This document shows, in pieces, positions 1,495 to 59,641 of a stretch of DNA of 59,891 nucleotides. The translations under genes were made by a program, and so were the position numbers. The stretch is taken from IMG/VR virus record IMGVR_UViG_3300025093_000023, positions 1 to 59,891 of that record. One strand, given 5' to 3'. The notes under the pieces are model-generated. The model did no database searches. It was not told where the DNA came from and saw nothing but the letters and a program-made list of their open reading frames with translations. This DNA is from a virus. Taxonomy: Duplodnaviria; Caudoviricetes. Numbering within the stretch: position 1 is the stretch's first letter; the number at the start of each line of letters is the position of its first letter.

Positions 1495-1827
1495 ATGGCA
1501 TACCTACCTGTAAACCCTTGCTGCACTGGTGTAGTTTTAAATACCACATGTGGATGTAATAGCACTTGCAATTGCAATTCTACTACAAACTCTTGTGGAA
1601 CTACTGGTGCACTTTCAAATACAATTGTGTATAATGGTCCTACACTTCCTGGTTCAGGGGTAGAGGCTTGTGATACACTTAACGTTGCATTATCAAAAAT
1701 AGATGAAGTTCTTGTTGAATTGAAAGCTCAAGTTGCACTAAACACTACTGCAATCTCTAACATAACAGAACAAATCAATAATATTAACGCACAGATAACA
1801 ACAATTAACAACAACTGTTGTCCATAA
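1495..1827 (+). CDS. Cys-rich small structural protein with C-terminal coiled coil
   Basis: 110-aa ORF. YNGPxL...DTL module shared with 389, 41989 and 42397; heptad I/N pattern at the C-terminus. Confidence 0.65.
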   Translation: MAYLPVNPCCTGVVLNTTCGCNSTCNCNSTTNSCGTTGALSNTIVYNGPTLPGSGVEACDTLNVALSKIDEVLVELKAQVALNTTAISNITEQINNINAQITTINNNCCP

Positions 1828-1829
1828 TT

Positions 1830-2078
1830 ATGACAGTATTATTAACACTAACTACAGCAGGAACTGATGCCACAGTGTTTGATTTATATTCAGACATTGA
1901 TGGCTTCACCACTGCTTTTGAAACAGGCGTAAGTAGAGCATCTTTAGTTGCTGGATACTCAAGCGTATTAGTTCCAGATTACACAACCACTGTAAGAATA
2001 CAAGCTACAGAGAAGTGTGTAAACTCTGTAGATATAGTGTTAGAAAACACAACAACAACCACCACCACAATACCTTAA
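1830..2078 (+). CDS. Small beta-rich protein (FDLYSD-domain paralogue) with poly-Thr tail
   Basis: ATG at 1830 is in frame with the listed ORF. Paralogous to 2082, 3180, 3407 and 13826; ends ENTTTTTTTIP. Confidence 0.7.
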   Translation: MTVLLTLTTAGTDATVFDLYSDIDGFTTAFETGVSRASLVAGYSSVLVPDYTTTVRIQATEKCVNSVDIVLENTTTTTTTIP

Positions 2079-2081
2079 GAT

Positions 2082-3164
2082 ATGTTGATACAGATAAATA
2101 TAACAATTCCCCCAAGTGGTTCTGCTGGACCATTTGATTTATATTCAGATGCAGATGGATATGTTTCTCCTTTTGAAACACAAGTTCCTGCTGCGAGTTT
2201 AACTGCTGGATATATTGTAGAACTACCTGTGGGAGCAACTATCATAAGAGTATGCTCTGTTGGTACATGTGAAAACTGTATTGATTTACCAACTAATTGT
2301 CCAACAACTACAACAACATCTACTAGTTCAACAACTACAACAACTAGTACTAGTAGTACAACCACTACTACAACCACTGCAGCTCCTCCATATAGATTTG
2401 ATTATGAGCTTATTACAGGAACTCCTACATTTATAGGAACTGTTAATCTTACAATAGAAGTTGATTCTGTTCAAGTGGTAAATCAAACAATAAGTGTTGG
2501 TAATACGTATCAAGCAGGATCATTAAACCTTACTGCTGGTCAAGTTGTAACAGCAACAATGACTAACGTTAAAACAGGTACATTTAACTTTGGTAATAAA
2601 ATAATACAAGATGGTGGATTATATCAACCACAAGACGATTGTATGCCTTGTGTAGATCAGTTAGTAACACCACTGTTCTCTCCATATACAATGGGAAGTG
2701 CTAACACTGCATTTGTATTCCAAGGAGACGTTAGTTCTCCTACAACAACTACCACTAGTACAAGCAGTACGACTACTACAACTAGTACAAGTAGCACAAC
2801 CACTACAACCACTACAGCAGCACCACTTGACTGTGCGTTGACTGGAGGAACTGCAGTGGTTAATACAACAACAACTACTACTACTAGTGCTACAAAATCA
2901 GCATTAATTTCAAACAGTTCTCACCCTAGTGATGCTTGTCCATATACACCATCAGTAACAGTATATGTTAGTAATCCAACAGGTTCTGGTGCTTCTCAAA
3001 CAGTAAGTACAAGTAGTGTAGTGTATACAGATGTTGCTGGAACTATACCATTCGTTGGTGATGGTAATTATTACAAAATAATTATGAGTGGTAGTTCACT
3101 ATTCACTAGTTCACCAGTAAATTCAAGTGGTCAAGTTAGTTCACCAATAGGAATTTGTCCGTAA
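2082..3164 (+). CDS. Putative virion surface protein: FDLYSD domain plus beta domains joined by mucin-like Thr/Ser linkers
   Basis: 360 aa; three long T/S runs separate globular segments. Confidence 0.7.
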   Translation: MLIQINITIPPSGSAGPFDLYSDADGYVSPFETQVPAASLTAGYIVELPVGATIIRVCSVGTCENCIDLPTNCPTTTTTSTSSTTTTTSTSSTTTTTTTAAPPYRFDYELITGTPTFIGTVNLTIEVDSVQVVNQTISVGNTYQAGSLNLTAGQVVTATMTNVKTGTFNFGNKIIQDGGLYQPQDDCMPCVDQLVTPLFSPYTMGSANTAFVFQGDVSSPTTTTTSTSSTTTTTSTSSTTTTTTTAAPLDCALTGGTAVVNTTTTTTTSATKSALISNSSHPSDACPYTPSVTVYVSNPTGSGASQTVSTSSVVYTDVAGTIPFVGDGNYYKIIMSGSSLFTSSPVNSSGQVSSPIGICP

Positions 3165-7227: not shown

Positions 7228-10200
7228 ATGGCTAAACAGCAATCAAATAAAGATTCTGATAAAAACAAAAAGCAGGGTAATATCAGACTAAATCCAGCTG
7301 CTGCTAGAGCAGGATTAAACCTAGACAGCTCTATCAACCAAGTTGGTCCTGGAAGACTTACCTATGCTTTAAATGCTGCTGTAGAAAACTTTGACTCTAG
7401 TTCTGTAAACTACCAGAATGAGCCAGGTAACGAGCTATGCTTGGATTTTCCTACAGGGTACAAACTTATTGGTTCTCATTTTATTCCTGAGAAGCGTAAG
7501 AATATATTCTTTTTAGCCAACCCAAACACAGGAGATAGTGAGATTGGATATATGGACAATAACGATTGTCAGTATCACACACTCATAAATGCTGCTTGCC
7601 TTAACTTTGATGTAAAGAATCCCATCCCTAAAGTTGTACACAGAATCACTAATTGTACAACAGAACTCTACTGGACAGATGGAGTTAATCCTAGAAGATA
7701 TTTAGACATAGAGAACATTCCGTATAAGCTTATAGCAGGTACACCAAGTTGTGATCCTGTATATAGTGATGAATTAGATTGTAACCAGCTTAAGTTACAA
7801 CCTGACTTCTCTATTCCTCAGTTAATGATTACTCAGATTAGAAATGTAGGTAATCTAACAGCAGGTACATATCAGTTTGCAGTGCAATATGCAGATGCTT
7901 CAGGTAATGAACTTACATCATACTACTCTGTAACTAACCCTGTTCCTATTGCTGATGAGTTTATTACATCAGTGAACTTTGATTATAATGTTGGAAAGTC
8001 TATTGCTGTAGGTGTTTTCAATCTTGACTTAACAGGACAATTTCAATACTTCAATCTAGCTGTAATAAAAACAATCAACAATGTTACATCTGTTGAGCTT
8101 GTAGGAACATATAATATTGAAGAAGCTACAAAAGAGATAGTTTACACAGGAGCTGATCAATCAGCAATACAGTTATCAATATCTGATATATTTGAGAAGT
8201 TTCCTTATTACGACATTGCACAAGATGTTACAGCTGTACAAGATGTTCTTGTGTGGGACAACCTTACATCTATTGATAGAATCAACTACCAGTCAATTGC
8301 AAATCAAATAACACTTGGTTGGGAAACACACAGGATACCAGCAAATGAAACGTATGCAGATGAGATAAATGCTGTAAACTTACGTGGGTACATGCGTGAT
8401 GAGGTGTATGCATTTGAAATTGTATTCTTACTAAAGAATGGTAAGCAAACAGATGGCTTTCATATTCCAGGAAGAGAGAAAGGTGCTAATGAAAGTTATC
8501 CAGATGTTCCTGACACAAACAATGATTTTATTGGAGAGCCTGATTACTACACTGGTGATACAGGTTATAAGTCTTGGTGGAAGGTATATAATACAGGATC
8601 TGTAACAGGAGCTTCTCCTGGTCAATCTAGTGACCCAAGCTATAAAGGACCATGGGAATATGGTGAGTTTGCATATTGGGAATCAACAGAAGAATACCCA
8701 TGTAACGATGATGTGTGGGGAGAGCTAGCTGGTCAACCTATTAGACACCACAAGTTTCCTGATCTATCTGTAACTCCTATAATGGAGAATGGTGAGATTG
8801 TTTATGACAACAATAAGATTGTTCCTGCAATGCAGGATAATGCCATCTTTCCTATTGGTGTTAGAGTGGATAACTCACAGATATATTCACTAATACAAAA
8901 CTCTGACTTAACACAAGATCAGAAAGATGATATTGTTGCCTACAAGATTGTAAGAGGTGACAGAGGAACAAACAAGTCTGTAATAGCAAAAGGTATACTT
9001 AGAAACGTAAACAAGTATACTAGAGATGAAGAAGACTATTACTACCCTAACTATCCATACAATGACCTGTCTTCAGATCCATATGTATTAGCAAACAATA
9101 ATGCATGGAGTGCTGACTCAGAGCCTTATCTAATACACTTACCATCTACACAAAATGATCCTTCTATTTTAGGAGTTATATTAGATCTTGAAATAACAGT
9201 AAATGAAGGAGAAGGTGTGTTTCAATACACAAGCGCATTGAATGGTAAGGTGACAGAAGCAACTATACAACTAGATGAAACAATTGAAATTTGTTCATTG
9301 ACAAGACCTGTCCCCTTGTTAGGTAAAATGACAATAGGTCCTGGTAACTATGATGTATACAAAGCGGATCATGGAGACACTTGGATTGATCTTCCTTTTG
9401 GTTATAGATTAAACTGGTATGATCCTTTTCAATATCCAGGAGAATTATTTACTGGAAGCACACAATTTAGACAAACATGGCTTAGTGATGATCCGTTTGG
9501 TTCTGATGGTAGAGGAACCGTTATTGTTGAGATGGATGCTCCAGCACCTTATGCAAGTGATTGTGTAGAGGCACCATGGCCTATTAATGAAGACTTATGT
9601 GTTCCTGAAATTAGACTAAAAGATCCAGCTGATGAAGACCCAGGAGAGGTTGCTAGTGTTTCAGGCATACCTGAAGCAGGTTATATATATGGAATTGGAA
9701 GTAGATTTAGTAGTAGAAGATCTACATTAGGTTGTAGTGATGAAAAACCTCAACCATCTATTGAGGAGCAAGAGGATACAGGATTAACATACAGGCAAGT
9801 ATTTAATTCACCAGAAACATCCTTTGGTCAACCATTCTTAGGAAGTGTATTAAAGCTGGAGAGTGTATTATTTGGGGCTGGTAAAGCACATTGGGTGCAA
9901 GTTAAAGACAATGCTAAATATAAGCTCCTATCTAAAGAAGCACAAACAGATGCATTAGATGCATCAAAAGCAGTTGCTACAGTGAATGGTGTTATCAATG
10001 CTGGTGTAATGTTTACTGTTTATCAGTCTTATCTAACAATTTATGTAAACGGTATTACAAGAAAGAACTATGCAATGTCTTTCAACTCTAGAGCTAACTA
10101 TGACTACTCTTATCCTGTAGACAATAATGTATCAGGAGGTATCAAGCAGAGAGATATTGATCTTACAAGATATTTGATTCCTGGAGTTCAGTCATTAGGT

Positions 10201-13200
10201 GGGGATGAGTTATCAATAAACAATTGGAACAGAGAAACTTCTGTATTTATAAGAACTGCAGGAAACAGAGAATATAATAATGAAGGAATTGATCCTCTAC
10301 CTTTTCCAAGTCAAACACCTAGTTTACTTAGTGGAGGAGATCCACTTATTGAAGATAAGTCTAGGTTTACAATAGGTAGTAAAGGAGCATGTGCAACACC
10401 TGAGAAAGAACAAGATGCTACAGTGGTGTCTTATTACGCATCTATGAAGAATATCATTCCTAATCAGTGGGGTCAGATATATTCATACCAAACAATTGAT
10501 ACAGGATATCAAGCTCTTATTAATACACCAGGAACCTCTACAGTATTTGGTGGAGATACATTTATTTCTAGATTTGCATTCAAAACAAAGCTTCCATACT
10601 TTATAGATAACAGAGTGGGTGCTCCAGATGATAGTGATATATTCTATGATGAACTTGGAAACATTGGTTACCCTAAATACTGGCACTCTTCTAGATCTAT
10701 TTTAGAAAATTATCAAATAGGTGGTACCCCTGCAACAAATCTCATTTCTTACAAGGCACACAACTTTGATTGTCCTAACGACCCTGCTTCTGTACCAAAA
10801 GATGGAGGAGCATACAGAACATTCTATGATGGATATATTTATTTATGGGCGTATGGTATTCCTAACTTCTATTGTGAAACTACATACAATACAGACTTAC
10901 GTCAAGCATTTAACAATAAAGAAGGAGACTTCTGGCCTCATGTAAGCTCTGGTATCCCTGATGATTGGTTACAAGAAATCAATGTACCCATTGCACAGGA
11001 TAACACATATTATTACAATGTAACATATTCTAAACAGAATAAAGAAAATGTATTCTCGCATCTTCCTCCTGATTGGGAAGAGGACTTGTGTTACACAGTG
11101 TTCCCATTTAGAGCTATTTATTCTGACGCAGCTACAGATAGTGCTGATGTTAGAGTTAATAACTGGTTGGTTTACAGAGCATTATCATTCCATGATTTCC
11201 CTCAGAATTATGGTGCACTTACGTCATTAGATGGTATTCAAAACAAAGCTATACTTGCACGATTTGAGAACAAGTCATTATTATATAACAACCTTCTTAC
11301 AATTGACACAAGTAATCCACAAGCTGCGTATATTGGTAATCCTAGACTATTTGATAGTTCTCCACCAATTGATTTTGCTGAAACAGATTTAGGATATGTA
11401 GGAAGTCAGAATAAGTTCTTACTAAAAATACCTCAAGGTCAAATCACTGTAGATGCTAAGAGAGGTCAAGTATTCTTAGTTTCAGGTGCTAAGGTACTGG
11501 ATATCACAGCATTTGGTTCTGGTGTAAATAGATTTATGTCAGATCACCTACCATTTGAGATATTACAATACTTTCCAAATGTACCTACAGACAACCACTT
11601 CAATGGTATAGGACTACATGGTGTCTATGATAGTAAGTTTGAGAGAGTGATTATCACTAAGTTGGATTATATTCCAATTGATGATAATGTACAATATGAT
11701 GAAGAAACAGGAGAGTTTTATGTGTTAAAAGGAGCAGGTGCAATTGTTCCACCATTAGAACCTGAAGTGCCTGTAGACTTACCAAGACCAATTCCACCAA
11801 CCCCTACAAATCTTTTTGATTGTAAGCAATATACAACTGTACCTTTTTCTCCAAGTTCTGAACAAGATAGTATCTCAATAACATACATTGACTGTAATGG
11901 AGATCAACAAACTTACTTTGAAATATGCACTGGAAAACGCTGTTCAGCTACAGTTTGTGCTATAGAGATAATAAGTTCAAACAGAGAAATAGAAACAACA
12001 GGTATTTGTGCAGATTTTTCTCCAACCACTACCACTACAACCACTGTGTCTAATGGACCAATAAGAGAAGTGGTGTACTTAAATGATAAGGAGTACTTCT
12101 GTAATAAGTCTTGGACTATGTCTTTTGACTTCAATACTAAGAGTTGGATATCATTCCATACATACATTCCAAACTTCTATATAGGAGAGAACAACTTCTT
12201 CTATTCAGGAATAAATGGATGTTGTACAAATGTTGGTGCACCTAACTTAGAGGTGGTTGCTGGACGATTATTACCAGTTAGTCCAATAACTACAACTACA
12301 ACCACTACACCATTAATTCCGACTACCACTACTACAAGCACTACGATAGATGATGTATTAAGTGATGGAATATTTATTCCTACAGATTGTGAACTTGCTG
12401 GAACAGGATTCATTACAGTTCCTCCAGCCACCACTACAACAACATGCTATGTTCCTTCAACTAATTTAAATTTTGTTACACTAGTAGAAGGATATCAAAT
12501 AATAGGAGATTCAGCAGTAACAACTACAGATTCTGAATATAGTTCTTGTAATGGTATAGCAGTTCTGAAAAATGGATATCTTGGAACTACTACACCTTCT
12601 GTACTTCCTATAAATATTAATCTATATTATGAAGGGCCAGATTTACAGCTCGGTACTAAGTTATATGTTTCTGGACAGAGTGGACCTTGTCCTATTGTTC
12701 CTGATGGTTGGTATGGTATATTAGATGACACTAATAACGTTTATAATATTTCAAACGGATTTATAGGAGAAATTAAAGATTGTGGTTTCTGTCTTACAAC
12801 TAGTACAACTACAACTCAAGTTCCTAGTGTTGAAGAGTGCTGTGGCATTATAGCACTAACAACAGATAATGTATACTCTGGATATATAGGTAATAACTCA
12901 AATCCTGAAAGTCAAACTTCTATACTTAATGTACCTGGATTTGTAGGATCTGCAACAGCAGGAGTTGCTTTCACATCAAATAAACTATGGGTAATTGATG
13001 GAGATATAAAAGAGTGGGATATTACACTTTCTCCATTTACAGCAACATTTAATAGAGATATTACTTTTGGAGAAATACAAGGTCCAGATGGTAATATTGC
13101 ACTAAGTGACACAGTATTATTATATGTAGATGCTGCTCAAACTCCACAAGAAATTGTAGAAGCAGATGTTACAACAAATACAGTTGTAAAAACTTCACAG

Positions 13201-13824
13201 TTTGCAATACAAGCAAATAGAACAGTTATAAGTAATTTATTATATACCACTACAAACAAATTACTTTTAGTTTCTCAAGACAGTGTTTCTTCCGATCACT
13301 ATGTTACACAATTTAATTACAGTAATGGATCTGTAGAACTAGACATAAATATTGGTACAGTTGATGCAAATATAATTACTGAATGTGAGTGTGGTATAAA
13401 ATTAACTAAAGTGGATGGTTCAGGTAATGTAGAGGTTTATATTGTATATCCAACTGGTATTAGTAAGATTATTGACTCTACTGTCATTCCTCCTAATGTA
13501 GGCCCACAGACCTTCCCACTATACACAACAGCAAGTCAATTATCATCTTATGTAAATTGTGCAATTGAAAATACCACAACAACAACAACTAGCTCATCAA
13601 CCACAACCACTACTACTACATTATCACCAACTTGTAATGAGTATGAAGTGAGTGGGCCAACAGCATTGTACTACACAGATTGCTTTGGACAACAACAAGT
13701 TCTAACTGTATCATCTGGACAGACAGAGAATGTATGTGCAAGTGTAGCAATACCTGGTGCAACATTAATAGGACCATGTCCATACTATACAACAACGACA
13801 ACAACAACATTACCTCCACCATAA
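7228..13824 (+). CDS. Tail stabilisation / muzzle-like protein with Thr-rich C-terminal passenger domains
   Basis: 2198 aa. Motifs GLNLD...YALNA, LYWTDGVNPRRYLD, GYMRDEVYAF, FGGDTFISRF and WISFHTYIP resemble crAss-like stabilisation proteins; synteny agrees. Confidence 0.7.
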   Translation: MAKQQSNKDSDKNKKQGNIRLNPAAARAGLNLDSSINQVGPGRLTYALNAAVENFDSSSVNYQNEPGNELCLDFPTGYKLIGSHFIPEKRKNIFFLANPNTGDSEIGYMDNNDCQYHTLINAACLNFDVKNPIPKVVHRITNCTTELYWTDGVNPRRYLDIENIPYKLIAGTPSCDPVYSDELDCNQLKLQPDFSIPQLMITQIRNVGNLTAGTYQFAVQYADASGNELTSYYSVTNPVPIADEFITSVNFDYNVGKSIAVGVFNLDLTGQFQYFNLAVIKTINNVTSVELVGTYNIEEATKEIVYTGADQSAIQLSISDIFEKFPYYDIAQDVTAVQDVLVWDNLTSIDRINYQSIANQITLGWETHRIPANETYADEINAVNLRGYMRDEVYAFEIVFLLKNGKQTDGFHIPGREKGANESYPDVPDTNNDFIGEPDYYTGDTGYKSWWKVYNTGSVTGASPGQSSDPSYKGPWEYGEFAYWESTEEYPCNDDVWGELAGQPIRHHKFPDLSVTPIMENGEIVYDNNKIVPAMQDNAIFPIGVRVDNSQIYSLIQNSDLTQDQKDDIVAYKIVRGDRGTNKSVIAKGILRNVNKYTRDEEDYYYPNYPYNDLSSDPYVLANNNAWSADSEPYLIHLPSTQNDPSILGVILDLEITVNEGEGVFQYTSALNGKVTEATIQLDETIEICSLTRPVPLLGKMTIGPGNYDVYKADHGDTWIDLPFGYRLNWYDPFQYPGELFTGSTQFRQTWLSDDPFGSDGRGTVIVEMDAPAPYASDCVEAPWPINEDLCVPEIRLKDPADEDPGEVASVSGIPEAGYIYGIGSRFSSRRSTLGCSDEKPQPSIEEQEDTGLTYRQVFNSPETSFGQPFLGSVLKLESVLFGAGKAHWVQVKDNAKYKLLSKEAQTDALDASKAVATVNGVINAGVMFTVYQSYLTIYVNGITRKNYAMSFNSRANYDYSYPVDNNVSGGIKQRDIDLTRYLIPGVQSLGGDELSINNWNRETSVFIRTAGNREYNNEGIDPLPFPSQTPSLLSGGDPLIEDKSRFTIGSKGACATPEKEQDATVVSYYASMKNIIPNQWGQIYSYQTIDTGYQALINTPGTSTVFGGDTFISRFAFKTKLPYFIDNRVGAPDDSDIFYDELGNIGYPKYWHSSRSILENYQIGGTPATNLISYKAHNFDCPNDPASVPKDGGAYRTFYDGYIYLWAYGIPNFYCETTYNTDLRQAFNNKEGDFWPHVSSGIPDDWLQEINVPIAQDNTYYYNVTYSKQNKENVFSHLPPDWEEDLCYTVFPFRAIYSDAATDSADVRVNNWLVYRALSFHDFPQNYGALTSLDGIQNKAILARFENKSLLYNNLLTIDTSNPQAAYIGNPRLFDSSPPIDFAETDLGYVGSQNKFLLKIPQGQITVDAKRGQVFLVSGAKVLDITAFGSGVNRFMSDHLPFEILQYFPNVPTDNHFNGIGLHGVYDSKFERVIITKLDYIPIDDNVQYDEETGEFYVLKGAGAIVPPLEPEVPVDLPRPIPPTPTNLFDCKQYTTVPFSPSSEQDSISITYIDCNGDQQTYFEICTGKRCSATVCAIEIISSNREIETTGICADFSPTTTTTTTVSNGPIREVVYLNDKEYFCNKSWTMSFDFNTKSWISFHTYIPNFYIGENNFFYSGINGCCTNVGAPNLEVVAGRLLPVSPITTTTTTTPLIPTTTTTSTTIDDVLSDGIFIPTDCELAGTGFITVPPATTTTTCYVPSTNLNFVTLVEGYQIIGDSAVTTTDSEYSSCNGIAVLKNGYLGTTTPSVLPININLYYEGPDLQLGTKLYVSGQSGPCPIVPDGWYGILDDTNNVYNISNGFIGEIKDCGFCLTTSTTTTQVPSVEECCGIIALTTDNVYSGYIGNNSNPESQTSILNVPGFVGSATAGVAFTSNKLWVIDGDIKEWDITLSPFTATFNRDITFGEIQGPDGNIALSDTVLLYVDAAQTPQEIVEADVTTNTVVKTSQFAIQANRTVISNLLYTTTNKLLLVSQDSVSSDHYVTQFNYSNGSVELDINIGTVDANIITECECGIKLTKVDGSGNVEVYIVYPTGISKIIDSTVIPPNVGPQTFPLYTTASQLSSYVNCAIENTTTTTTSSSTTTTTTTLSPTCNEYEVSGPTALYYTDCFGQQQVLTVSSGQTENVCASVAIPGATLIGPCPYYTTTTTTTLPPP

Positions 13825-13825
13825 T

Positions 13826-14698
13826 ATGATAATAGTAATAAAATTAACCTTTTCTGGACCAAACGCAGGACCGTTTGACATACTTACAACATCAAGACAG
13901 GTGTTGAGAGAAGGTGTGTCCAGACGAGAACTGATAGATGGAATTACTGTTAATCTTAAAGGTCAAGTGTCCAGTGATCAAACAGCTATTATAGTTAAGT
14001 CAAATGGAGAGTGTCAGTTTGAAAAAATTATACAACTTGAAGACATTCCTATGGATGAGTATCAGAAGCTTACATACTCTGAAGATACTACTGGCTGTCT
14101 GTGGACACATCTAAAGAATACACAGTTGTACAACTACTACTATGGAAACATAGAGCCTTACATCATTGAGTATCCATTTGCATACAAATATAATGATGAG
14201 ATACTTCAGAATGTAAAAGATTACAGTAAGGTGTATAGATATCTACCAGAAGTGGCAGGATCTTTTGATTCTAACAGAAAGGTGCAAGTAGATGATCGTT
14301 GGTTCAACAAAGCTGTATTATATAATGGGCAACAGTCTACAGGTATATTAGAGCTTGTACCTAAGCCTCAGAATAATATGGTAGCTTACTTACAGTATCC
14401 TATATTAAATACTGATAGTAAAACTATTACATACTCGAAGAGTGATAATTTCTACCAGTACAATACATTCTGGGCATTACAGGTAGATGATCAGAAACCA
14501 TTGTTTAACACATCTTGTGAGTCTCTTTCTATTGACAAAGAGGTGAATCAAGCTAACATGAACTATGGAAACATATCATTTAAGAAATCACCTCTTAGAG
14601 CTAAGAACTTAAAGGTGAGACATATTCTTGACAATTCATCAACAACACATATTGTTAGTCAGTTTATTGTAACACCATCACAAATATCATATAAGTAA
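13826..14698 (+). CDS. Probable C-terminal portion of the tail stabilisation protein, fused to an FDLYSD-like N-terminal domain
   Basis: N-terminal IKLTFSGPNAGPFDI...EGVSRRELIDG matches the small paralogues; the remainder reads LWTH...YYYG...PYIIEY...FNKAVLYNGQQSTG. Confidence 0.55.
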   Translation: MIIVIKLTFSGPNAGPFDILTTSRQVLREGVSRRELIDGITVNLKGQVSSDQTAIIVKSNGECQFEKIIQLEDIPMDEYQKLTYSEDTTGCLWTHLKNTQLYNYYYGNIEPYIIEYPFAYKYNDEILQNVKDYSKVYRYLPEVAGSFDSNRKVQVDDRWFNKAVLYNGQQSTGILELVPKPQNNMVAYLQYPILNTDSKTITYSKSDNFYQYNTFWALQVDDQKPLFNTSCESLSIDKEVNQANMNYGNISFKKSPLRAKNLKVRHILDNSSTTHIVSQFIVTPSQISYK

Positions 14699-48300: not shown

Positions 48301-49893
48301 TCAGGTGTTAACGGTGCTAATGGAAGCGGTGGAACTAGTGGGACTAGTGGAACTAGTGGTGTGAATGGAGCTAATGGTACCAGTGGGACCAGTGGTACTA
48401 GTGGTACATCAGTTGCTGTATCAGGAACTACAAACTATGTAACTAAGTTTACTAGTGCTACAACAATTGGTAACACAGCTGTTCCAATATTTGAGAGTGG
48501 TACAACAGTGGTTGTAGGTGGTACTAGTGCTGGTATAGCAAGTTCAAAACTTGATGTAGTTGGTAATATATACACTAGTACTGGTATATACATTGCTAAT
48601 GGTACCAATAACTATATTGGTGCATACTCTGGTAACATGCTTGTATATTCTCAAGCAGGTACAATAATTTATCTTGGTGGTGGTATAGGAAACAGACAAA
48701 ATGATGTTCAAGTTGGTAATGGATATCTAGCTGTAGATAATAATGGTGCTGCTAGTGCATTTGCTGTTAATCAACTTTTCCCTGTAACTAGTCACACTTA
48801 TGGACAACCTTCAGATGCTATTATTGAAGGATACAATGATAATAATGGTGGTGTACTTACATTATATAATGGTGACACAACTATATCAGCTGCTCAGAAA
48901 CTAGGTATATTACAATGGGTGGGTAAGGATGATGCAACTGGTGGGTATACAATGGCCCAAATAATGTGTTCAGCTCAAAATGCTCCTGGTTCAGGAAGTA
49001 ATGGTGGTGGTAATCTTGATTTTCTCACTGCTACTACAGGAATTGGAGCAGCTCCTTCAACAAAAATGAGAATTGACTACCTAGGTAATGTTGGTATTAA
49101 CAATACATCTCCTTCTGCTCGTCTTGATGTTGTTGGTGATGTAGAGATAGAAGGTAACATTGTAAATAGCAAGACTGGTATTGGTGTAAGTAACCTGTTT
49201 AGAACAGATATAAGTACACCTAAAATCATCATGGGTGATGAGAATGGATATTGGACTGGTTCTTCGATTGAGTATGATGTAGACAAAACTGAGATTACTT
49301 TTGGAAAAACAAGAGCTGGATGGGATGTTAATCCAACAGAACTCATACATATCAACAAAGGCAGTATGCGTTTTGAAAAGTCTGGTATTAAAGACAACGG
49401 TAATGACCCAGGTGCTCCAGGACAAGCTTTATATAGTAATGGTAATGACGCTGTTGAATGGAAATATGTTAGTTTCCCAATAGCTGCAAGTTTTTTGCAC
49501 AATATATCTTCATCAAATTCTACTATATACTGGTTACCTATTGGTTATGTTGTAGAGTCCACTACAATAAACTATTACAATTCAATGGTAGCTCCTTATA
49601 ATGGTAGAGTGAGAAAGGTTGTTATGAGATGGGTGAGTGGATCAACACCAACAGCAACTTCCGTTACATTTAGAACAAGTACAAATGGAACTACAAGTGG
49701 TACAACATATCCTGCCACTGTTACAGGTGGAGCTACTACTAGTATGGTGGTTACCAGAGACTTTGGTGTAAGTGGCTTCACATTTAATGAAGGTGATAGA
49801 TTTAGTTTAGGATTTACATCAGACGGAGGTACAAGACTATTACAAGGAATGGCTGTTACAATAATTGTACAATACACAGAAAACACTCCATAA
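42397..49893 (+). CDS. Long fibre protein with Gly-Thr-Ser triplet repeats and interspersed globular domains
   Basis: 2498 aa; hundreds of GTS/GTT/GSS triplets; C-terminal fibre motif [18 protein letters not shown]. Confidence 0.8.
42562..48410 (+). repeat. Degenerate 9-nt coding repeat (GGN ACN TCN/AGY) in several blocks
   Basis: Directly visible; synonymous positions vary from unit to unit. Confidence 0.9.
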
Positions 49894-49894
49894 T

Positions 49895-51466
49895 ATGGCA
49901 AACTTAAATTCAGCAATAAGATTAAAGAAACTCTATGAGCTTAAAGCTACACTTGAAAGAGCATCTAAAAATGCTTCTGGAATTGTGGAGCTGCCCACTT
50001 CTGATTATGATAAAGTGGAGGAGACAAATGATATTCTTGAATCAGTTATTGATCCTGCAAAGAAAGAATTCTTAGCTCCTATCATAAATATGATAGAGAC
50101 TCTTCGTAAAGATCTTGAAGATATACATGGTTATATAGATACAGCATTTGGATTAGATCCTACAAAAGCTTCTTCTCAAGGACCTCAAGGTGCCACTGGT
50201 CCACAAGGACCACAGGGTGTGCAAGGACCCACTGGTCCAACAGGTGCTACAGGTTCTCCTGGTTGGGGATTAACAATGAAAGGTTCTGTAAGCACATCAG
50301 GTAGTTTACCTAGTTCTGCTTCTGATGGAGATGCATACATTGTACAAAGTGATGACTCATTTTGGATTTATGCAGATGGTAGTTGGGTGAGTGGTGGATC
50401 TATACAAGGTCCTAAAGGGGATACAGGTAACACTGGAGCTCAAGGACCCACTGGTGCAACTGGAGCAACAGGCCCACAAGGACCAAAAGGTAACACAGGA
50501 GCAACTGGTGCTGCAGGAAGTAGTGGAACAAGTGGAACTTCTGGTGCTAAAGGAGCAACAGGAAATACAGGAGCCACAGGTGCTTCAGGTTCTAGTGGTA
50601 CGTCAGGTACCTCTGGAGCAAAAGGTAATACAGGAAGTACAGGTGCAACAGGTCCTCAAGGACCAAGTGGATCATCTGGAACCTCAGGTGTTAATGGAGC
50701 TGTAGGACCTAAAGGAAATACTGGTGCCACTGGAGCTAGTGGAAGTTCAGGTACTTCAGGAACGTCTGGAGCTAAGGGTAATACAGGTGCAACAGGACCA
50801 ACTGGTCCAAAAGGAGATACTGGTGCTACAGGAGCTAGTGGAACGAGTGGAACGAGTGGTGTAAATGGTGCCACTGGACCACAGGGTCCAAAGGGAAATA
50901 CAGGAAGTACTGGAGCAACTGGTGCATCTGGTAGTTCTGGTACTTCTGGAACTAGTGGTGCAAAAGGTGCCACAGGTGCTACTGGACCTAAAGGAAACAC
51001 AGGAAATACAGGCGCTACTGGTGCGTCTGGATCTAGTGGTACTAGTGGTACTTCTGGAGCTAAGGGAAATACTGGAGCCACTGGACCAAAAGGTGATACT
51101 GGTTCAACAGGTCCAGCTGGTGCAAATGGTACATCAGGTGTAAACGGAGCAACAGGACCTACTGGACCTCAAGGTCCTAAAGGTAATACTGGTGCTACTG
51201 GTGCTAGTGGTTCATCAGGAACTAGTGGTACGAGTGGTGCAAAAGGAGCTACTGGAGCTACAGGAGCAACTGGAGCTACTGGTCCACAAGGTCCAACTGG
51301 TCCACAGGGATCAACAGGTGCTACAGGAGCTTCTGGGACAAGTGGGACATCAGGTACAAGTTCTTCAGCAAGTGGAGTGACTCAGACAGTCACTGTTGTA
51401 GTTAATACAAAAGGAGCCACTGTAGACTTAATATTTAAAAATGGTCTATTAGACGCAGTAAAATAA
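49895..51466 (+). CDS. Collagen-like (Gly-X-Y) fibre protein
   Basis: ATG at 49895 follows the upstream stop. [12 protein letters not shown] repeats mixed with GSSGTSGTS blocks; small Trp-containing domain MKGSV...GDAYIV...[12 protein letters not shown]. Confidence 0.8.
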
Positions 51467-51472
51467 TAAATT

Positions 51473-51781
51473 ATGGCAATATCATATACATGGAACTGTT
51501 CAGAAGTAGAAGCTTATCCAGAATTGGATGGGCATAACAATGTTATACACACTGTATACTATATGATACGAGGTATGGAAGATGGTAAACATCATGAAAT
51601 ACTTGGACAAGTACAACTTGATACATCCTCCTTAGATAACTTTGTAGAAATAGAAGACTTAACAAGTAATGATCTAACAGATTTTGTTAGAGATGCACTT
51701 GGTCTTGATATGGTGGATAGTCTAGAAGCTGAGATAGCTAAAGAGTTACATAAAGAATCTAACTCATTTGTAATACCGTAG
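51473..51781 (+). CDS. Small acidic fibre-associated protein (possible assembly chaperone)
   Basis: 102 aa, directly after the fibre genes; function inferred from position. Confidence 0.55.
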   Translation: MAISYTWNCSEVEAYPELDGHNNVIHTVYYMIRGMEDGKHHEILGQVQLDTSSLDNFVEIEDLTSNDLTDFVRDALGLDMVDSLEAEIAKELHKESNSFVIP

Positions 51782-54700
51782 ATACTACATCAATCACTTT
51801 ACTAGCTGGTATACCTCTATGACATTCAAAATGTCTAGGGGTATTTTTATGTTCAGGACACCAGTCCCAATCTCCCCTATCAAACTTATGGTTTGGATTG
51901 TTCCAACATCCATGACATAAAGATGTATCTACAACTCTCAAGCAGCTAAACTCATGATCAGCTTCTGTGAAGTTGGATATCATTACAACAGGCACACCAA
52001 TAGCCCACGCTAACCAACTTAGTCCACTACTAAGCCCTATAAAGAAAGTGCTCTGTCTAATACAATCTATAGTGTATTCAATAGACGTATCTGATATCTT
52101 CTCACAATTGTCAAAAGGATTGTCTTCTATAGATGTATTAATCACTTTATATCCTTTATCATGTAAGAAGTTTATAACCTCTTGCCATCCTTCTCTAGTC
52201 CAGAACTTACAACCAGCTGTAGAGTTAGTAGCTATTGTAACGTACTCCTGACCTTCTATAACATTACCCCAATCTTTCTTTATTCTAGGAACAATTTCTT
52301 CATATGGTAGTCCTAGTATATTTGTAGCAGCTTTCTGTAGAGGAATTGTATTTGGTAAAACAGGTTCTTTGTTTTCATTGTAGAACCATCCTATTTTATA
52401 CATTGCATAGACATTCTCCACTTCTGTTCCAGGCTTTACAAACTCAAGCTCAGGATATACATCTTCAAACAAGAAGTTCTTAAACGTGCTTACAATCACT
52501 TTACATCCATGTTTCTTCTTGAATTCTAATACATAAGGTATCCAGGCTATTGTATCTCCTAATGATGAACTATCAAATGCTATATAGACACGTTTGTTAT
52601 ATAGATTGAGTGTTTCTTTATACACTTGCTCACCAGTACTAGCTTTTGTAATCAAAGTGGTCCACTCTGTATAATACTCTCTATTGAGCCTCACCCAGTT
52701 ATTAGTTCCTATGGTGCTATTATACACCAATTTTGCACCATCATACATATATACATTAAATCTGTCTTTAGACCTACCTGTAATTTCTAAATATGGTTGA
52801 CCTACAAAGTGTTGTATAATATTATAGTCTTTACTTGTTTCATTTTGTATAACATCCATATCTAACACTTTGTTATACAACTCTTTATGACGCTCACCAA
52901 ATACATCCATAGTGTTATTAGATGGTACATCATAAGCTGGTGCAGCTGTAAGAAGTTTATTCAGCTGATTTTTCATCTTCATAGGATGTAAATCTTCTAT
53001 GTATGCTGTAAACATATCTTTATACTGTGGAAGATTACGTGCTAGTATAGGTAGGCCATATGATATAGCCTCTCTCAATACTAGTGGGTTACACTCCCAG
53101 GTGGAGTTGAACATGAATACATCTGCAGCTAATAAGAACTTGTCTGTATCACTACGCTCACCCCATACAGTTACATTAGGTGGTAAGTCTTTCATCAATG
53201 GTTCCCAGTAGTCTTTAAAATTAACTGCTTGGTTACCTACAAAGTGAAACTCTACATTTGGAAACTTCTTAGCTAATGCTACACCTTCTCCCTGATTCTT
53301 ACCTTTAGTCCATAGTCCTATGTTTACAACATGTTTCTTGCTTGGGTCTAGTTCTAAATCATATTTAGCATTTAATTTGCTCTGCCAATCATGTACTACA
53401 GGCTCTATAGGAAACTCTAGAACTTCTCTGAGAGACGGCATGTTTTTAAATGTCTCTAAATGATAGGGTGTACAGAAAGCATATACATCTGGGTGATATC
53501 TCTTTTCTGCATCAGCATTAAATGATATGTTGTGACAGGTTTCAATGATCTTCCAAGATCTATCATTATTATATAATAGAGGTAGTACATCATCTGCACC
53601 ATCTCCTAAACACTCAGCCATCTCATCTATATGGACAATATCTATATTATTGTCTTTAATGATGTCTATGAGCTCTGTCTTATCTTCTCCTAGTGTATAG
53701 AAGTTGGATACAAGTTTCTTAATCTGATTCTTCTGAACAACATACTCATCACTATAGTTGGTCCATTCTACAACATAAATGTTAAACCCACTAAGTGCTT
53801 TGATTCTTTTGAGAAGGAACTCAGGCATACCACCTGTAGATAGATGAGGTGCTAGGAACAACACTCGTTTAGAAAGCTTACTGTTCATCTGTTTCATTAT
53901 ATTTATATCTTTTTCTCCGTGAAATGCCATGAGCTGTTCTTTCTTAGCTGGTACAGCCACCCATTCTGATTCATGACGCATCTCTCCTGTAAACTCTATA
54001 GCATCAATATCTATCTCTCCTTTGTAGTTCATATACATTATAGGAAGTCCTTCGTGTATATTATATTTCCACAGGAGTACATTAGCTAGTGTTTCTTCAT
54101 GATATGGTGCATATAGTTGTGGATTCTTTACAACAGCTGGATGAGAACACATCCACATCCATTCATCAATCCACTTTCTAGCATGTTGACCTGCAACAAA
54201 GTAACCAGTTTGTCTATACTTATCTCTTACATTCTGATCTACACCAAACAGTTCACACGCTGCATGTTCTAAACTTTTATACAGTTCATCTCTTGTCTCT
54301 ACACCACCACGTCCATTAATAAATAGATAGTCATATATACCTTTTGTAAAGTATGGATGTGTGCAATTTTCTGGATAGTAATTAAAAATCTCATCTATGT
54401 ACTTAGTTACAATAGTATCTGAGTCTATATATGCCACTGTCTTAGCATAATTATCAAGAGCATCAGCAATCACACGAGGTCTTTCTGCTAATAGCTTGAA
54501 CACCTTTGTATCATTTCTATCTATATATTTGTTCTTCTTAATGTATATACCATGTAAATCCCACTTGATTGTCTTGTATGCACCAGGAACTTTCCATTCA
54601 GAGTTAATCATGTATACAATAACAGGAACATCACTTGCGTTATTAATGCTTTTTACAGCCTCACATACAACATCATAATAAGATGTATTTGCATATAAAA

Positions 54701-55223
54701 CATAAGCTTTCTCCACTTTTCGTTTCATATACATATAGTATCCATAGTCTTTATTACCACACAATAACTCTAAACTAGGATAGCGCTCACTCATTATTTC
54801 AGGAGTTAAGTCGTCTTGTAAATGTGTTTCATGTGTATTTCCTTCCCACTCACCTTGCTCCATCTCATATGGAATAGATACAAGGCATTCTTTTCCTTGT
54901 TTTTTAATATTATCAATAAGAGAAATAGCATCTTCCTTGTTGAGGTGCTCTAGTACATCTCCTAGTATAATGAAATCATAGTCTGATATATCAAATTTTC
55001 TTATATCACCTATGTATACATTGTCATACTTATCTCTTAGATTGAACTTCTCAATGTATGGTGAAAATATCTCAACACCATCTATCTGATATCCATGTCC
55101 AGATAGTAAGTCTCCATAAATTCCTGCACCAGGACCTACATCAAGAATTCTTTTAGTAGTTGATACGTTATCGATTACCCATTTTTGGACTCTAGATTTG
55201 AATCCACTCCAGCTGTGCGGCAT
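51759..55223 (-). CDS. Four-domain enzyme: SAM methyltransferase + GT-A glycosyltransferase + GT-B (GT4-like) + TibC/AAH-like heptosyltransferase
   Basis: ILDVGPGAG/GDVLEH; YIDSD; LFLAPHLSTGGMP...ECNPLVLREA; SSSLGDTIAW...FIGLSSGLSWLAW...CHGCWN...WCPEH...FEC. Confidence 0.8.
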   Translation of the reverse strand: MPHSWSGFKSRVQKWVIDNVSTTKRILDVGPGAGIYGDLLSGHGYQIDGVEIFSPYIEKFNLRDKYDNVYIGDIRKFDISDYDFIILGDVLEHLNKEDAISLIDNIKKQGKECLVSIPYEMEQGEWEGNTHETHLQDDLTPEIMSERYPSLELLCGNKDYGYYMYMKRKVEKAYVLYANTSYYDVVCEAVKSINNASDVPVIVYMINSEWKVPGAYKTIKWDLHGIYIKKNKYIDRNDTKVFKLLAERPRVIADALDNYAKTVAYIDSDTIVTKYIDEIFNYYPENCTHPYFTKGIYDYLFINGRGGVETRDELYKSLEHAACELFGVDQNVRDKYRQTGYFVAGQHARKWIDEWMWMCSHPAVVKNPQLYAPYHEETLANVLLWKYNIHEGLPIMYMNYKGEIDIDAIEFTGEMRHESEWVAVPAKKEQLMAFHGEKDINIMKQMNSKLSKRVLFLAPHLSTGGMPEFLLKRIKALSGFNIYVVEWTNYSDEYVVQKNQIKKLVSNFYTLGEDKTELIDIIKDNNIDIVHIDEMAECLGDGADDVLPLLYNNDRSWKIIETCHNISFNADAEKRYHPDVYAFCTPYHLETFKNMPSLREVLEFPIEPVVHDWQSKLNAKYDLELDPSKKHVVNIGLWTKGKNQGEGVALAKKFPNVEFHFVGNQAVNFKDYWEPLMKDLPPNVTVWGERSDTDKFLLAADVFMFNSTWECNPLVLREAISYGLPILARNLPQYKDMFTAYIEDLHPMKMKNQLNKLLTAAPAYDVPSNNTMDVFGERHKELYNKVLDMDVIQNETSKDYNIIQHFVGQPYLEITGRSKDRFNVYMYDGAKLVYNSTIGTNNWVRLNREYYTEWTTLITKASTGEQVYKETLNLYNKRVYIAFDSSSLGDTIAWIPYVLEFKKKHGCKVIVSTFKNFLFEDVYPELEFVKPGTEVENVYAMYKIGWFYNENKEPVLPNTIPLQKAATNILGLPYEEIVPRIKKDWGNVIEGQEYVTIATNSTAGCKFWTREGWQEVINFLHDKGYKVINTSIEDNPFDNCEKISDTSIEYTIDCIRQSTFFIGLSSGLSWLAWAIGVPVVMISNFTEADHEFSCLRVVDTSLCHGCWNNPNHKFDRGDWDWCPEHKNTPRHFECHRGIPASKVIDVVSTVLQMS

Positions 55224-55959: not shown

Positions 55960-56195
55960 GTAGAAAAGAGAAGATAGATTATTTTTTAAAGAAGTGGATC
56001 AGTAGAAAGCTCACTGTGTTTATAGTGGCTTGTTTTGGTCTGTTCTCTGATAATATAACATCTTCTGATTGGGTGATAATAGCCACTGTATACATATCTA
56101 TACAAGGTGTTTCAGACCTGGTAGAGAAACTATTCAAAGCAAAGAAATCAGATGGTCCAATATATAATCCATACTCTTCTGAAGAAGGTCTATGA
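55956..56195 (+). CDS. Putative holin
   Basis: ATGA overlaps with both neighbours; SRKL followed by two transmembrane segments. Confidence 0.65.
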   Translation: MSRKEKIDYFLKKWISRKLTVFIVACFGLFSDNITSSDWVIIATVYISIQGVSDLVEKLFKAKKSDGPIYNPYSSEEGL

Positions 56196-56641
56196 GAAGA
56201 ATAGATAAGATCATATTACATTGTAGTGCTACCCCTGAGGGTAAGCATTTTGATGTTGATGAGATTAGAAGATGGCATGTTGAAGGAAGAGGTTGGTCAG
56301 ATATTGGATACCATTACATAGTTTATTTAGATGGAAGTATACATAACGGAAGACCTGTTGAAATCCCAGGGGCTCACGTCAGAGGACATAATAAACACAG
56401 CATCGGTGTATGTTATGTTGGTGGACTTTCTGCAGTGAAAGATAAAAGAGGCAGATGGCCTGCTGAAGATACAAGAACTCCACAGCAAAAAGAAGCATTG
56501 TGGAGACTACTCATGGAACTTATGGCTGCATATGATGGTGCAACGCTACATGGTCACAATGAGTTTGCTAGAAAAGCATGTCCTAGCTTTTCAGTAGCTA
56601 AAGAATATAAGGACGTAATTGAATTTTATGCTGATAATTAA
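56192..56641 (+). CDS. Endolysin, N-acetylmuramoyl-L-alanine amidase (T7 lysozyme / Amidase_2 type)
   Basis: IILHCSAT, GWSDIGYH, GAHVRGHN, SIGVCYVGG, GHNE..KACP Zn-ligand motifs. Confidence 0.93.
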   Translation: MRRIDKIILHCSATPEGKHFDVDEIRRWHVEGRGWSDIGYHYIVYLDGSIHNGRPVEIPGAHVRGHNKHSIGVCYVGGLSAVKDKRGRWPAEDTRTPQQKEALWRLLMELMAAYDGATLHGHNEFARKACPSFSVAKEYKDVIEFYADN

Positions 56642-57598: not shown

Positions 57599-58231
57599 AT
57601 GGCAACTTTTATAAAAGCAGGCTTTTGGCAGAAACTGTGTGACCCTTGTGAGGGTTATAAACACTGGTTGAACCTAGATAAGTTTGTTGGTAACATTTTA
57701 AACACTACACCAAGAGGCTTGTATTCTCAAACAGCTGATGGTACAGAAATTGTAAATACTGATGTAGAGTCAGATTTAATTGGAACAGGTGTAGGTACTT
57801 TAAGTGTTCCTGCAAATACATTTAAGGTGGGAGATAGCTTTATTGCAAAGATGGGTGGTGTAATTTCTACAGCTGGAGGTGGTGAATTTATAAGAATAAG
57901 AGTGGAAGCACTTAACGATGTAACAATTACATTAGCAGACAGTGCACTTCAGAGTCTTCCAGTATTAAATAACGAATCCTTCACTCTTGAGCTTGATTTT
58001 ACAATCAGAAATATTGGAGCAGCAGGAACTGCAGAGATAGTAACTGTTGGGATTATGACATTTCAAAAGTCTTCTTCAGGAACTATGGAGGGATTTGAAT
58101 TTAGAACAGTTGAAAATACCAACTTTGACACAACCAAAGACTTAACATTAGACATCACTGCTACATGGGGCACAGCAAGTCCTTCAAACAGTATTCAAAG
58201 TCAATATTTTACATTATTTAAAACATATTAA
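57599..58231 (+). CDS. Beta-rich hypothetical (probable structural) protein
   Basis: 210 aa, Thr/Gly-rich beta pattern, N-terminal CxxC. Confidence 0.6.
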   Translation: MATFIKAGFWQKLCDPCEGYKHWLNLDKFVGNILNTTPRGLYSQTADGTEIVNTDVESDLIGTGVGTLSVPANTFKVGDSFIAKMGGVISTAGGGEFIRIRVEALNDVTITLADSALQSLPVLNNESFTLELDFTIRNIGAAGTAEIVTVGIMTFQKSSSGTMEGFEFRTVENTNFDTTKDLTLDITATWGTASPSNSIQSQYFTLFKTY

Positions 58232-58234
58232 AAC

Positions 58235-58369
58235 ATGGGAACACCAAGAAAACAAATAGGATGGAGCACAACAGATAACTTGTTGTGGCAAATTTCTAAG
58301 CAGTTAGACAGGTTGATCAAGGTGACTGGTTCACAGAACACTACCACTACCACTACGACAGCCCCTTAA
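58235..58369 (+). CDS. 44-aa peptide with poly-Thr tail (not in the ORF track)
   Basis: MGTPRKQIGWSTTDNLLWQISKQLDRLIKVTGSQNTTTTTTTAP; fills the intergenic gap. Confidence 0.65.
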   Translation: MGTPRKQIGWSTTDNLLWQISKQLDRLIKVTGSQNTTTTTTTAP

Positions 58370-58396
58370 TAACAATTTAAAAACCAACAACTACAT

Positions 58397-59416
58397 ATGA
58401 AAGATTTAAAATTTATCTGTGCTCAGCCAGATGATACTTACTACACATGGCAAGTACATCTTTGGCTGGAGAGCTTAAAAGAAATAGGTCAGATAGAGAA
58501 TGCAATTGTTCTTGTATTCACACCTGCTGTAAGAGCGTTCAACGATAAGTGGAAAAAGATACAAGATCTGTATCCTGAAGCTGAGTTCAACTTCTATAAA
58601 GATGAAGAGAATGATGTAAGTAAGCTGCTAGGTATATACATTCCTGTATTACGTCCGTGGTTACTTTGGAAATATTTCAAAGAGAATCCAGAAATGTCTA
58701 GCAAAGCTGTGTTCTATTGTGACTCAGACATATTGTTTACAGATAAGTTTGATGTAAGTAAGTTTATAGAAGATGATGTAAACTATCTATCAAACACTAA
58801 CAGCTACATAAATGCTAGCTACTTTGACAGCAAGGTGAATCAGGTGTTACCTGAGAAGCTTGAAGAATATAAGCATAGAGATGTCTTAGCAGAAATTGCA
58901 AGTGTCATAGGAATAACTAGAGAGATAGCTGAGGCTAACAATGAACACTCTGGCGGTGCACAATATTTGTTGAAGAATGTAGACTCTTCGTTCTGGAGCA
59001 AGGTGATGAATGATTGTATACTCATCAGAACATACCTGCAGACAATAAACAGAGAGTTCTTCAAAAGTGAGAACGATGGGTTTCAATCATGGTGTGCAGA
59101 CATGTGGGCTGTATTGTGGAACCTATGGCTTAGAGATCAAGAAACAAAGGTGATACCTGAACTTGATTTTGCATGGGGACCAGACCCTATATCTAAACTA
59201 GATAACTGCTCAATATACCACAACGCTGGTATTGTAGCAACAGAACAAGGAGGATATCCTTGCTTCTATAAAGGAAAATATCACTCTGGTGCAGATCCTA
59301 TGAAAGATCCTCACCTAGATGTTGTGTTAAACAACGAAGAGAGTAAAAAGCATTGCACATGGTATTACGCTAGTGCAGTAAATAACATAAAACAAAAGTA
59401 TAACCTAAACTATTAA
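58397..59416 (+). CDS. GT-A glycosyltransferase resembling peptide O-glycosyltransferases (HPAT/SGT1-like)
   Basis: YYTWQ near the N-terminus, RP, DSD (DxD) motif, GAQY, WCADMWA, IYH. Confidence 0.6.
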   Translation: MKDLKFICAQPDDTYYTWQVHLWLESLKEIGQIENAIVLVFTPAVRAFNDKWKKIQDLYPEAEFNFYKDEENDVSKLLGIYIPVLRPWLLWKYFKENPEMSSKAVFYCDSDILFTDKFDVSKFIEDDVNYLSNTNSYINASYFDSKVNQVLPEKLEEYKHRDVLAEIASVIGITREIAEANNEHSGGAQYLLKNVDSSFWSKVMNDCILIRTYLQTINREFFKSENDGFQSWCADMWAVLWNLWLRDQETKVIPELDFAWGPDPISKLDNCSIYHNAGIVATEQGGYPCFYKGKYHSGADPMKDPHLDVVLNNEESKKHCTWYYASAVNNIKQKYNLNY

Positions 59417-59434
59417 CATTTAAAATTATTTAAA

Positions 59435-59641
59435 ATGGGAAGCATTAAAAAACGTGATTTAAAGGCTTATGTAAGATTCGATGGATCTGGCAGAGTAGTT
59501 CCAGGTAGCTTAGTTCTTAGACGTAAAATGCCTAAGGTTGGTAATTGGCAAGAGATTGTTGGCTATGAGTGCTGCAATCCTACCACTACTACAACTACTA
59601 CAGCTGCACCAACCACAACCACTAGTACAACTACTGTATAA
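59435..59641 (+). CDS. Small basic protein with poly-Thr tail
   Basis: 68 aa; ends ECCNPTTTTTTTAAPTTTTSTTTV. Confidence 0.7.
   Translation: MGSIKKRDLKAYVRFDGSGRVVPGSLVLRRKMPKVGNWQEIVGYECCNPTTTTTTTAAPTTTTSTTTV

Follow-up and report, generated by a model that had tools for sequence, protein, structure and literature searches.

The window analyzed here, a 59,891-bp stretch that constitutes the entire IMG/VR contig IMGVR_UViG_3300025093_000023 of a Caudoviricetes phage (estimated completeness of 53%, G+C content of 37.1%), carries at its 3' end three open reading frames (ORFs) on the same strand, in which a glycosyltransferase of 339 amino acids (aa) is flanked by two micro-proteins ending in runs of threonine (Thr). 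Because the enzyme and such Thr tags appear and vanish together in unrelated phages, this phage probably sugar-coats its own particle proteins, and it is likely, judging from the sequences and a structural model, that the enzyme O-glycosylates the Thr tags on phage proteins in the cytoplasm. The three genes are as follows.

58235..58369, + strand: 44-aa micro-protein of family A, ending NTTTTTTTAP; a proposed acceptor.
58397..59416, + strand: 339-aa soluble GT-A glycosyltransferase of PHROG 4417; the proposed Thr-tag O-glycosyltransferase.
59435..59641, + strand: 68-aa micro-protein of family B, ending NPTTTTTTTAAPTTTTSTTTV; a proposed acceptor.

The ORF list and its translations confirmed these genes at 58235-59641, with their motifs and Thr runs, as the first-pass annotation had described them, the motifs of the 339-aa protein being Y15-x-x-W18-Q19, D109-S-D111, and W232-C-A-D235-M236-W237-A238.

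Thirteen diverse GenBank phages with an enzyme homolog were compared over 5-kb flanks, and in every one of them (13/13) head, tail, or decoration proteins encoded nearby have Thr-rich tails, which none of the enzyme-free controls shows (0/5). In 11 of the 13, runs of at least six Thr were found within 5 kb on annotated capsid, tail-tube, prohead protease, and small decoration proteins, and the Thr-run gene usually sat immediately upstream of the enzyme, while the upstream gene of the remaining two carried TTV[KA]P repeats (SAC12B) or TTTETQTQTQ repeats (LP65). The controls were five phages whose records lack a PHROG 4417 gene altogether and whose tail-tube proteins share 50-60% identity with that of phiFL1A; these proteins stop exactly where the Thr tail of phiFL1A starts. 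One tail-tube family was furthermore tested in 80 IMG/VR loci, which were distributed as shown below.

Enzyme present, poly-Thr tail: 30 loci
Enzyme present, no tail: 0 loci
Enzyme absent, poly-Thr tail: 1 locus
Enzyme absent, no tail: 49 loci

The lone exception, a tail without an enzyme, was a 5.5-kb contig that ends before the enzyme's place in near-identical relatives. Fisher's test on the 80 loci gave a p value of ~3e-21, the significance of which is inflated since the test ignores relatedness. On a tree of 78 tail-tube cores, from which L150 and L152 (both lacking enzyme and tail) had been trimmed out, six changes were needed for each of the two traits, and the independent contrasts (3/3 on well-supported branches, six on all branches) all pointed in the same direction. 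A transferase coupled to putative acceptor tails on capsid and tail-tube proteins, as in the phage virion O-glycosylation systems, was thus what these comparisons revealed.

Two further observations on capsid and tail-tube genes deserve mention apart from these counts. In Enterococcus phage vB_EfaS_140, an unannotated frame following the stop codon of the major capsid gene (L087:4689-4830) reads several Thr7-9 blocks, and it may either extend the capsid protein by frameshifting or be a small tagged gene in its own right. In the enzyme-free tail-tube loci L144, L150, L152, L167, and L172, a longer C-terminal extension, Ig-like by eye, occupies the position of the Thr tail, and one tail-tube attachment point seems to be used for differing decorations.

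The close relatives of the window were examined in a synteny survey of the kind that the first-pass annotation had proposed, covering the best 80 of 295 relatives' loci in IMG/VR (68-93% identity, contigs up to ~117 kb). The enzyme gene was intact in 80/80 loci, and in 69 an ORF on the same strand containing five or more consecutive Thr lay within 300 nt of it. Family A (the 44-aa type) was found directly upstream of the enzyme in at least 36 of the 80 loci, a lower bound set by a strict pattern, and family B (the 68-aa type) was found within 700 nt downstream in 61 and anywhere in the locus in 73, with frequent tandem copies. Differences among the sequences were distributed over codon positions 1/2/3 as 21876/13711/34727 and 46215/30068/90086 in the two micro-ORF families, and about half of the differing codons were synonymous in both. 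Since the variation falls mostly on the third codon position, both families are real coding genes. Taken together, the 13/13 versus 0/5 comparison, the adjoining Thr-run ORFs in 69/80 loci, the tail-tube table, and the tree contrasts lend strong comparative support to the enzyme-plus-poly-Thr-substrate layout suspected in the first-pass annotation, an arrangement that goes beyond chance.

Family A has a conserved N-terminal segment (..QIGW..NLLWQISKQL..) followed by T7-xAP (T7-AP in the window copy), with L17, W18, I20, and Q23 invariant in an alignment of 41 sequences. Family B consists of a small beta-rich head (LKAYVRFDGSGR..KPKVG.W.EI..ECC) and, in the window copy, a P-T7-AAP-(S/T)8 tail; its alignment showed invariant K10, R14, D16, G17, R20, and C46-C47, followed by P-T7-xAP-T7. 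The modeled head comprised three short strands with a predicted local distance difference test (pLDDT) score of ~88, the tail being unstructured, and in some members the same head is followed by proteins of 125-252 residues. The length of the Ser/Thr block peaked sharply at seven (112/163 blocks in family B and 41/85 in family A), Pro usually preceded the block, and xAP was the commonest sequence after it. An origin of the Thr runs as DNA repeats was rejected because their codons are mixed (ACA 741, ACT 703, ACC 377, ACG 27), which indicates that selection acts on the peptide. A complex prediction for the enzyme with the 68-aa protein, using alignments, gave a score of 0.00 against a mark of 0.32, with no controls alongside, and speaks neither for nor against binding.

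The window as a whole contains ten Thr runs of seven or more residues, each of exactly seven, across five genes, and the following proteins carry such blocks in addition to the micro-proteins.

1818..2078, + strand: 86-aa protein ending N-T7-IP; a further tagged protein.
2082..3164, + strand: 360-aa protein with several Ser/Thr linker blocks, each ending in T7, that separate small domains.
7228..13824, + strand: 2198-aa structural protein with ~8 Thr blocks in its C-terminal third, ending Y-T7-LPPP; no Pfam family.

By eye, the ORFs at 1818-2078, 2082-3164, and 13826-14698 (all + strand) have a common N-terminal module (..FDLYSD.DG.. / ..GPFDIL..), and two of the three run on into Thr7 blocks; these ORFs may represent a second 'docking head plus tag' family.

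The 339-aa protein was confidently assigned, on the strength of its predicted structure, as a GT-A glycosyltransferase, and the GT-A fold and the invariant D-x-D (DxD) motif bore out the glycosyltransferase call of the first-pass annotation. By sequence, it matched PHROG 4417, a family of unknown function (E 1.8e-58, residues 4-332 on profile positions 1-292 of 293), and this match was upheld at the DNA level. No Pfam family, Glyco_transf_8 included, matched at E<=1, no NCBIfam match was obtained, and no PDB sequence was matched by single sequence or by profile; sequence profiles thus did not place the enzyme in GT8 (CAZy) or Pfam Glyco_transf_8. The family comprises 782 clusters at 50% identity and 4091 at 90% from phages and bacteria, at odds with the earlier description of a mainly eukaryotic group. 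The names among the listed homologs were all 'hypothetical protein' or 'prophage pi2 protein 34', and the best GenBank match was a Chryseobacterium phage. Longer family members are fusions to methyltransferase, GT2, GT6, and radical-SAM/SPASM domains. Of 14 control genomes, those of Methanocaldococcus jannaschii and Sulfolobus acidocaldarius gave matches to the PHROG 4417 profile as well.

An AlphaFold (AF2) model of the protein built with 56 relatives as input (pLDDT 97.4) was compact, with one globular domain of a Rossmann-like alpha/beta/alpha GT-A fold, in which D109-S-D111 comes right after strand 104-107 at the end of a central strand. A Foldseek search against the PDB returned 185 chains at E<=0.001, the top matches listed being GT-A transferases, and the matches included WbbM, glycogenin, XXYLT1, alpha-1,3-galactosyltransferase, blood-group transferases, and UGGT (E ~1e-5, template modeling (TM) score ~0.45). 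An exhaustive search by VIA gave Z scores of 14.7 for glycogenin, 13.9 for LgtC, 13.8 for Skp1 alpha-galactosyltransferase, 13.0 for UGGT, 12.8 for WbbM, 12.1 for GlyE, and 11.1 for PBCV-1 A64R. The nearest solved folds are accordingly of the GT8 type, such as glycogenin and LgtC, and among viral models (BFVD) the enzyme's own relatives ranked first (TM 0.82 and 0.70), with giant-virus GT8 proteins coming next.

D109 and D111 were invariant both in the 56 relatives and in 14 cross-phylum homologs (21-35% identity) from Chryseobacterium, Enterococcus, Lactobacillus, Lactococcus, Staphylococcus, and Clostridium phages. The alignment of these 14 also left invariant, among others, G187-A-Q189, Q230, W232, M236, H275, G278, F290, and K292, with W18 nearly invariant and Q19 and D235 mostly replaced by E in homologs of Gram-positive phages. 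This residue set fits a metal-dependent GT-A active site. H275-N-A-G278 and K292, conserved throughout the 14 from Bacteroidota to Firmicutes phages, may correspond to the GT8 motif H-x-x-G...K, in which a C-terminal His binds the metal and a Lys lies close by. Because the structural neighbors are GT8-like, the enzyme would be expected to employ retaining (alpha) chemistry.

A scan of species-representative genomes identified 15 loci with a homolog, all in Bacteroidota. Three of them, with 62-72% identity, are phage-like contigs of metagenome-assembled genomes, one of which, from a Sediminibacterium bin, is 111,986 bp long, and these contigs, together with the Chryseobacterium phage as the best GenBank match, suggest a Bacteroidota host for the window phage. 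In ten distant loci (L184-L189, L191-L194), the enzyme domain forms the N-terminal part of 534-566-aa proteins, and the neighboring genes encode LanB dehydratase halves (1 locus), LanC-like proteins (7), C39-peptidase ABC exporters (7), and thioredoxin-like proteins (5). Seven of the ten also contain small ORFs in which a Gly-Gly leader precedes a core rich in Cys, Ser, and Thr; several of these cores start with S-x-x-P-T-T right after the Gly-Gly. To judge from gene content, these lanthipeptide-like clusters match the class I clusters that Walker et al. (2020, PMC7268733) describe for Bacteroidetes, in which Gly-Gly leaders and C39 exporters likewise occur. The placement of distant bacterial homologs in lanthipeptide-like clusters beside Cys/Thr-rich precursor peptides is new here, and it provides an independent hint that the enzyme family modifies peptides.

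In the proposed mechanism, the 339-aa enzyme would act as a soluble, cytoplasmic, metal-dependent catalyst that moves a sugar late in infection from a nucleotide sugar, the presumed donor, to the hydroxyls of the Thr tract; we infer that Thr is the acceptor and that this enzyme performs the priming step. The acceptor in this phage clade would be a nearly fixed cassette of Pro, seven Ser/Thr, and x-Ala-Pro, located at the C-termini of both flanking micro-proteins, which are themselves presumed to reside on the virion, as well as within larger structural proteins, in their linkers and tails. Another gene of the window may contribute to the pathway.

51759..55223, - strand: 1154-aa multidomain enzyme with methyltransferase, GT-A-like, GT1/GT4, and GT9-like domains (Pfam for methyltransferase, GT1/GT4, and GT9-like).

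The GT-A-like domain of this protein aligned weakly with the profile of the enzyme family, DSD on DSD (hhalign probability 69%, E 4.3e-5), and a homolog is encoded no more than 10 kb from the enzyme in 34 of the 80 clade loci. The 1154-aa protein is a candidate partner that may extend and methylate the glycan, and the outcome of the pathway would be a mucin-like sugar coat over particle-associated proteins. A broader picture may be offered tentatively, and we hold it to be possible rather than probable: Pro-(Thr)7-x-Ala-Pro would be a portable, genetically encoded O-glycosylation tag read in the cytoplasm by one soluble family, with which phages of two phyla build mucin-like coats and 'docking head - glycosylated stalk - tip' proteins; the number seven would reflect the enzyme groove acting as a ruler, and the family would also tailor the Thr-bearing lanthipeptide-like peptides of Bacteroidota. 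Enzyme and tag would then form a minimal pair with which bacteria could be made to produce O-glycoproteins.

Other explanations have to be weighed against the proposal that this enzyme primes the Thr tags. The tracts could be glycosylated with the 339-aa enzyme merely extending or branching a glycan whose first sugar is added by the 1154-aa protein or a host enzyme, as might be expected from the second GT-A-like domain and the GT4 and GT9 domains encoded 3 kb away, and from the fact that its structural neighbors GlyE and LgtC are glycan extenders. However, where small Firmicutes siphophages carry tagged capsid or tail genes, no transferase other than the PHROG 4417 gene was seen beside them in the annotated 5-kb flanks, and the 1154-aa enzyme accompanies the gene in just 34/80 clade loci, so we consider this explanation unlikely. 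It is improbable, too, that the Thr tracts are plain flexible linkers and that the enzyme targets host envelope polymers (for receptor masking or serotype conversion) or phage DNA: the joint gain and loss of enzyme and tag within one tail-tube family, the position of the gene inside late structural modules between tail-tube and chaperone genes, and a model with a compact single globular domain, for which no membrane or DNA-binding family was matched, all disagree with it, even though phage transferases with envelope or DNA roles are well known (PMC12619734) and Thr/Ser interdomain linkers are common in polysaccharide-binding proteins (PMC6821194).

The first-pass annotation had, by eye, likened the enzyme to plant hydroxyproline arabinosyltransferase (HPAT, GT95) and peptidyl-serine galactosyltransferase (SGT1, GT96); as a true member of that lineage, it would attach arabinose or galactose to hydroxyproline (Hyp) or serine beside the prolines that flank the Thr blocks. 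HPAT/GT95 membership was not recovered by profile: the Pfam model PF23452 matched neither the 339-aa protein nor any of 14 phage records with an enzyme homolog (0/14) at E<=1, nor any of ten further, more distant relatives (0/10), and the single match among 56 close relatives (E 0.013) fell below the family cut-off of 23.9 bits. Furthermore, none of the 240 homologs listed in two homolog searches bore a Pfam tag, no prolyl hydroxylase was found among the window proteins scanned, the scans covering only part of the ORFs, and it is the Thr run, not the proline, that covaries with the enzyme. Even with the proline flanks and with PF23452 assigned to 10-58% of the members in 22 of the 30 nearest named ESM Atlas clusters, true descent from the plant lineage with this chemistry is very improbable; a remote relationship to plant HPAT is possible and constitutes a faint lead.

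Several observations weigh against Thr-tag glycosylation by the enzyme, which we nevertheless favor. The evidence for every family member is wholly genomic and structural, no known glycosyltransferase-family sequence profile matches the enzyme (Pfam, NCBIfam, PDB sequences), and its structural similarity to solved enzymes is moderate (Foldseek TM ~0.45). An adjacent Thr-run ORF was missing in 11/80 clade loci, and no Thr tract was present within 5 kb in 10/15 Bacteroidota loci, those of the 27-36% identity homologs, which means that the enzyme family is not tied to poly-Thr everywhere. Finally, so few independent gain/loss events underlie the association, 3 when well-supported branches are counted and 6 over all branches, that the sign test falls short of significance (p = 0.25).

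Freeman et al. reportedly described virion glycosylation of mycobacteriophages Che8, Rita, and others in Cell Host Microbe in 2023. According to PMC12619734, PMC11256854, and PMC10877033, transferases encoded by mycobacteriophages glycosylate the C-termini of capsid and tail-tube subunits, producing a glycan shield. The system proposed here resembles these in pairing a phage transferase with C-terminal tails of capsid and tail-tube subunits but, compared by description only, differs in its Bacteroidota and Firmicutes hosts, in the unannotated PHROG 4417 enzyme, and in a homopolymeric Thr tag of near-fixed length.

Among the enzymes with a related fold, the GT8 members glycogenin, LgtC, and GlyE are alike in the DxD after the fourth strand and possibly in the late His-x-x-Gly with a downstream Lys, their Z scores of 14.7, 13.9, and 12.1 extending over 221-235 residues, whereas the identity is only ~10-14%, Glyco_transf_8 does not match at E<=1, and the phage enzyme has ~80 extra residues of helical insertions. 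The acceptor of GlyE, an enzyme of the pneumococcal serine-rich-repeat adhesin pathway, is a Ser-rich repeat protein that it modifies in the cytoplasm. Chlorovirus PBCV-1 A64R, which glycosylates the major capsid protein, is likewise a virus-encoded cytoplasmic GT-A enzyme (Z 11.1 over 190 residues) but is smaller and derives from a eukaryotic virus, and its glycans are N-linked and atypical. With plant HPAT and SGT1, the phage enzyme would share the glycosylation of peptide hydroxyls in repetitive proline-flanked tracts, as proposed here, along with the faint profile and language-model links; the Pfam HPAT model fails, however, the acceptor would be Thr instead of Hyp or Ser, and the phage enzyme has no membrane anchor. 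The likeness to lanthipeptide clusters and glycocins lies in the distant homologs, which adjoin LanB, LanC-like, thioredoxin-like, and C39-ABC genes and Cys/Ser/Thr-rich precursors; in contrast to those 534-566-aa fusions without poly-Thr neighbors, the window enzyme is a stand-alone phage protein.

As for the remaining genes of the window, lysis genes lie upstream of the trio, with an amidase at 56192-56641 (PHROG 822), and very large structural proteins are encoded farther upstream of these. A 210-aa ORF (57599-58231, + strand) and the 44-aa ORF (58235-58369, + strand) share a frame and are split only by TAA AAC; a fusion of the two by stop-codon read-through was rejected, since the frames differ in the relatives L006, L063, and L084, which makes read-through unlikely as a rule. 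The 2498- and 533-aa proteins encoded at 42397-49893 and 49865-51466 (+ strand) contain closely packed collagen triple-helix repeats (Pfam Collagen, with E values of 1e-151 and 6e-54, respectively) and are probably fibers. A 4186-aa ORF at 24554-37114 (+ strand) matched no Pfam family at E<=0.001, and the 1601-aa ORF next to it gave a weak PD-(D/E)XK nuclease match.

A full-text literature search, which did not include subscription journals and supplements, found no paper on the PHROG 4417 enzyme family or on phage poly-Thr tags, and as far as that search and the sources consulted reached, glycosylation of phage particles has been shown experimentally for mycobacteriophages only. The enzyme family is present in dairy, enterococcal, and staphylococcal phages as well as in abundant environmental Bacteroidota phages. 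If the proposed reading is true, virion O-glycosylation would be widespread, given a family of 782 clusters at 50% identity, with consequences for how stable phages are and how they adsorb, for their immune recognition in therapy, and for their escape from host sensors that detect capsid and tail proteins. The reading would, moreover, give a function to an unannotated family and supply glycoengineering with a simple enzyme-plus-tag pair.

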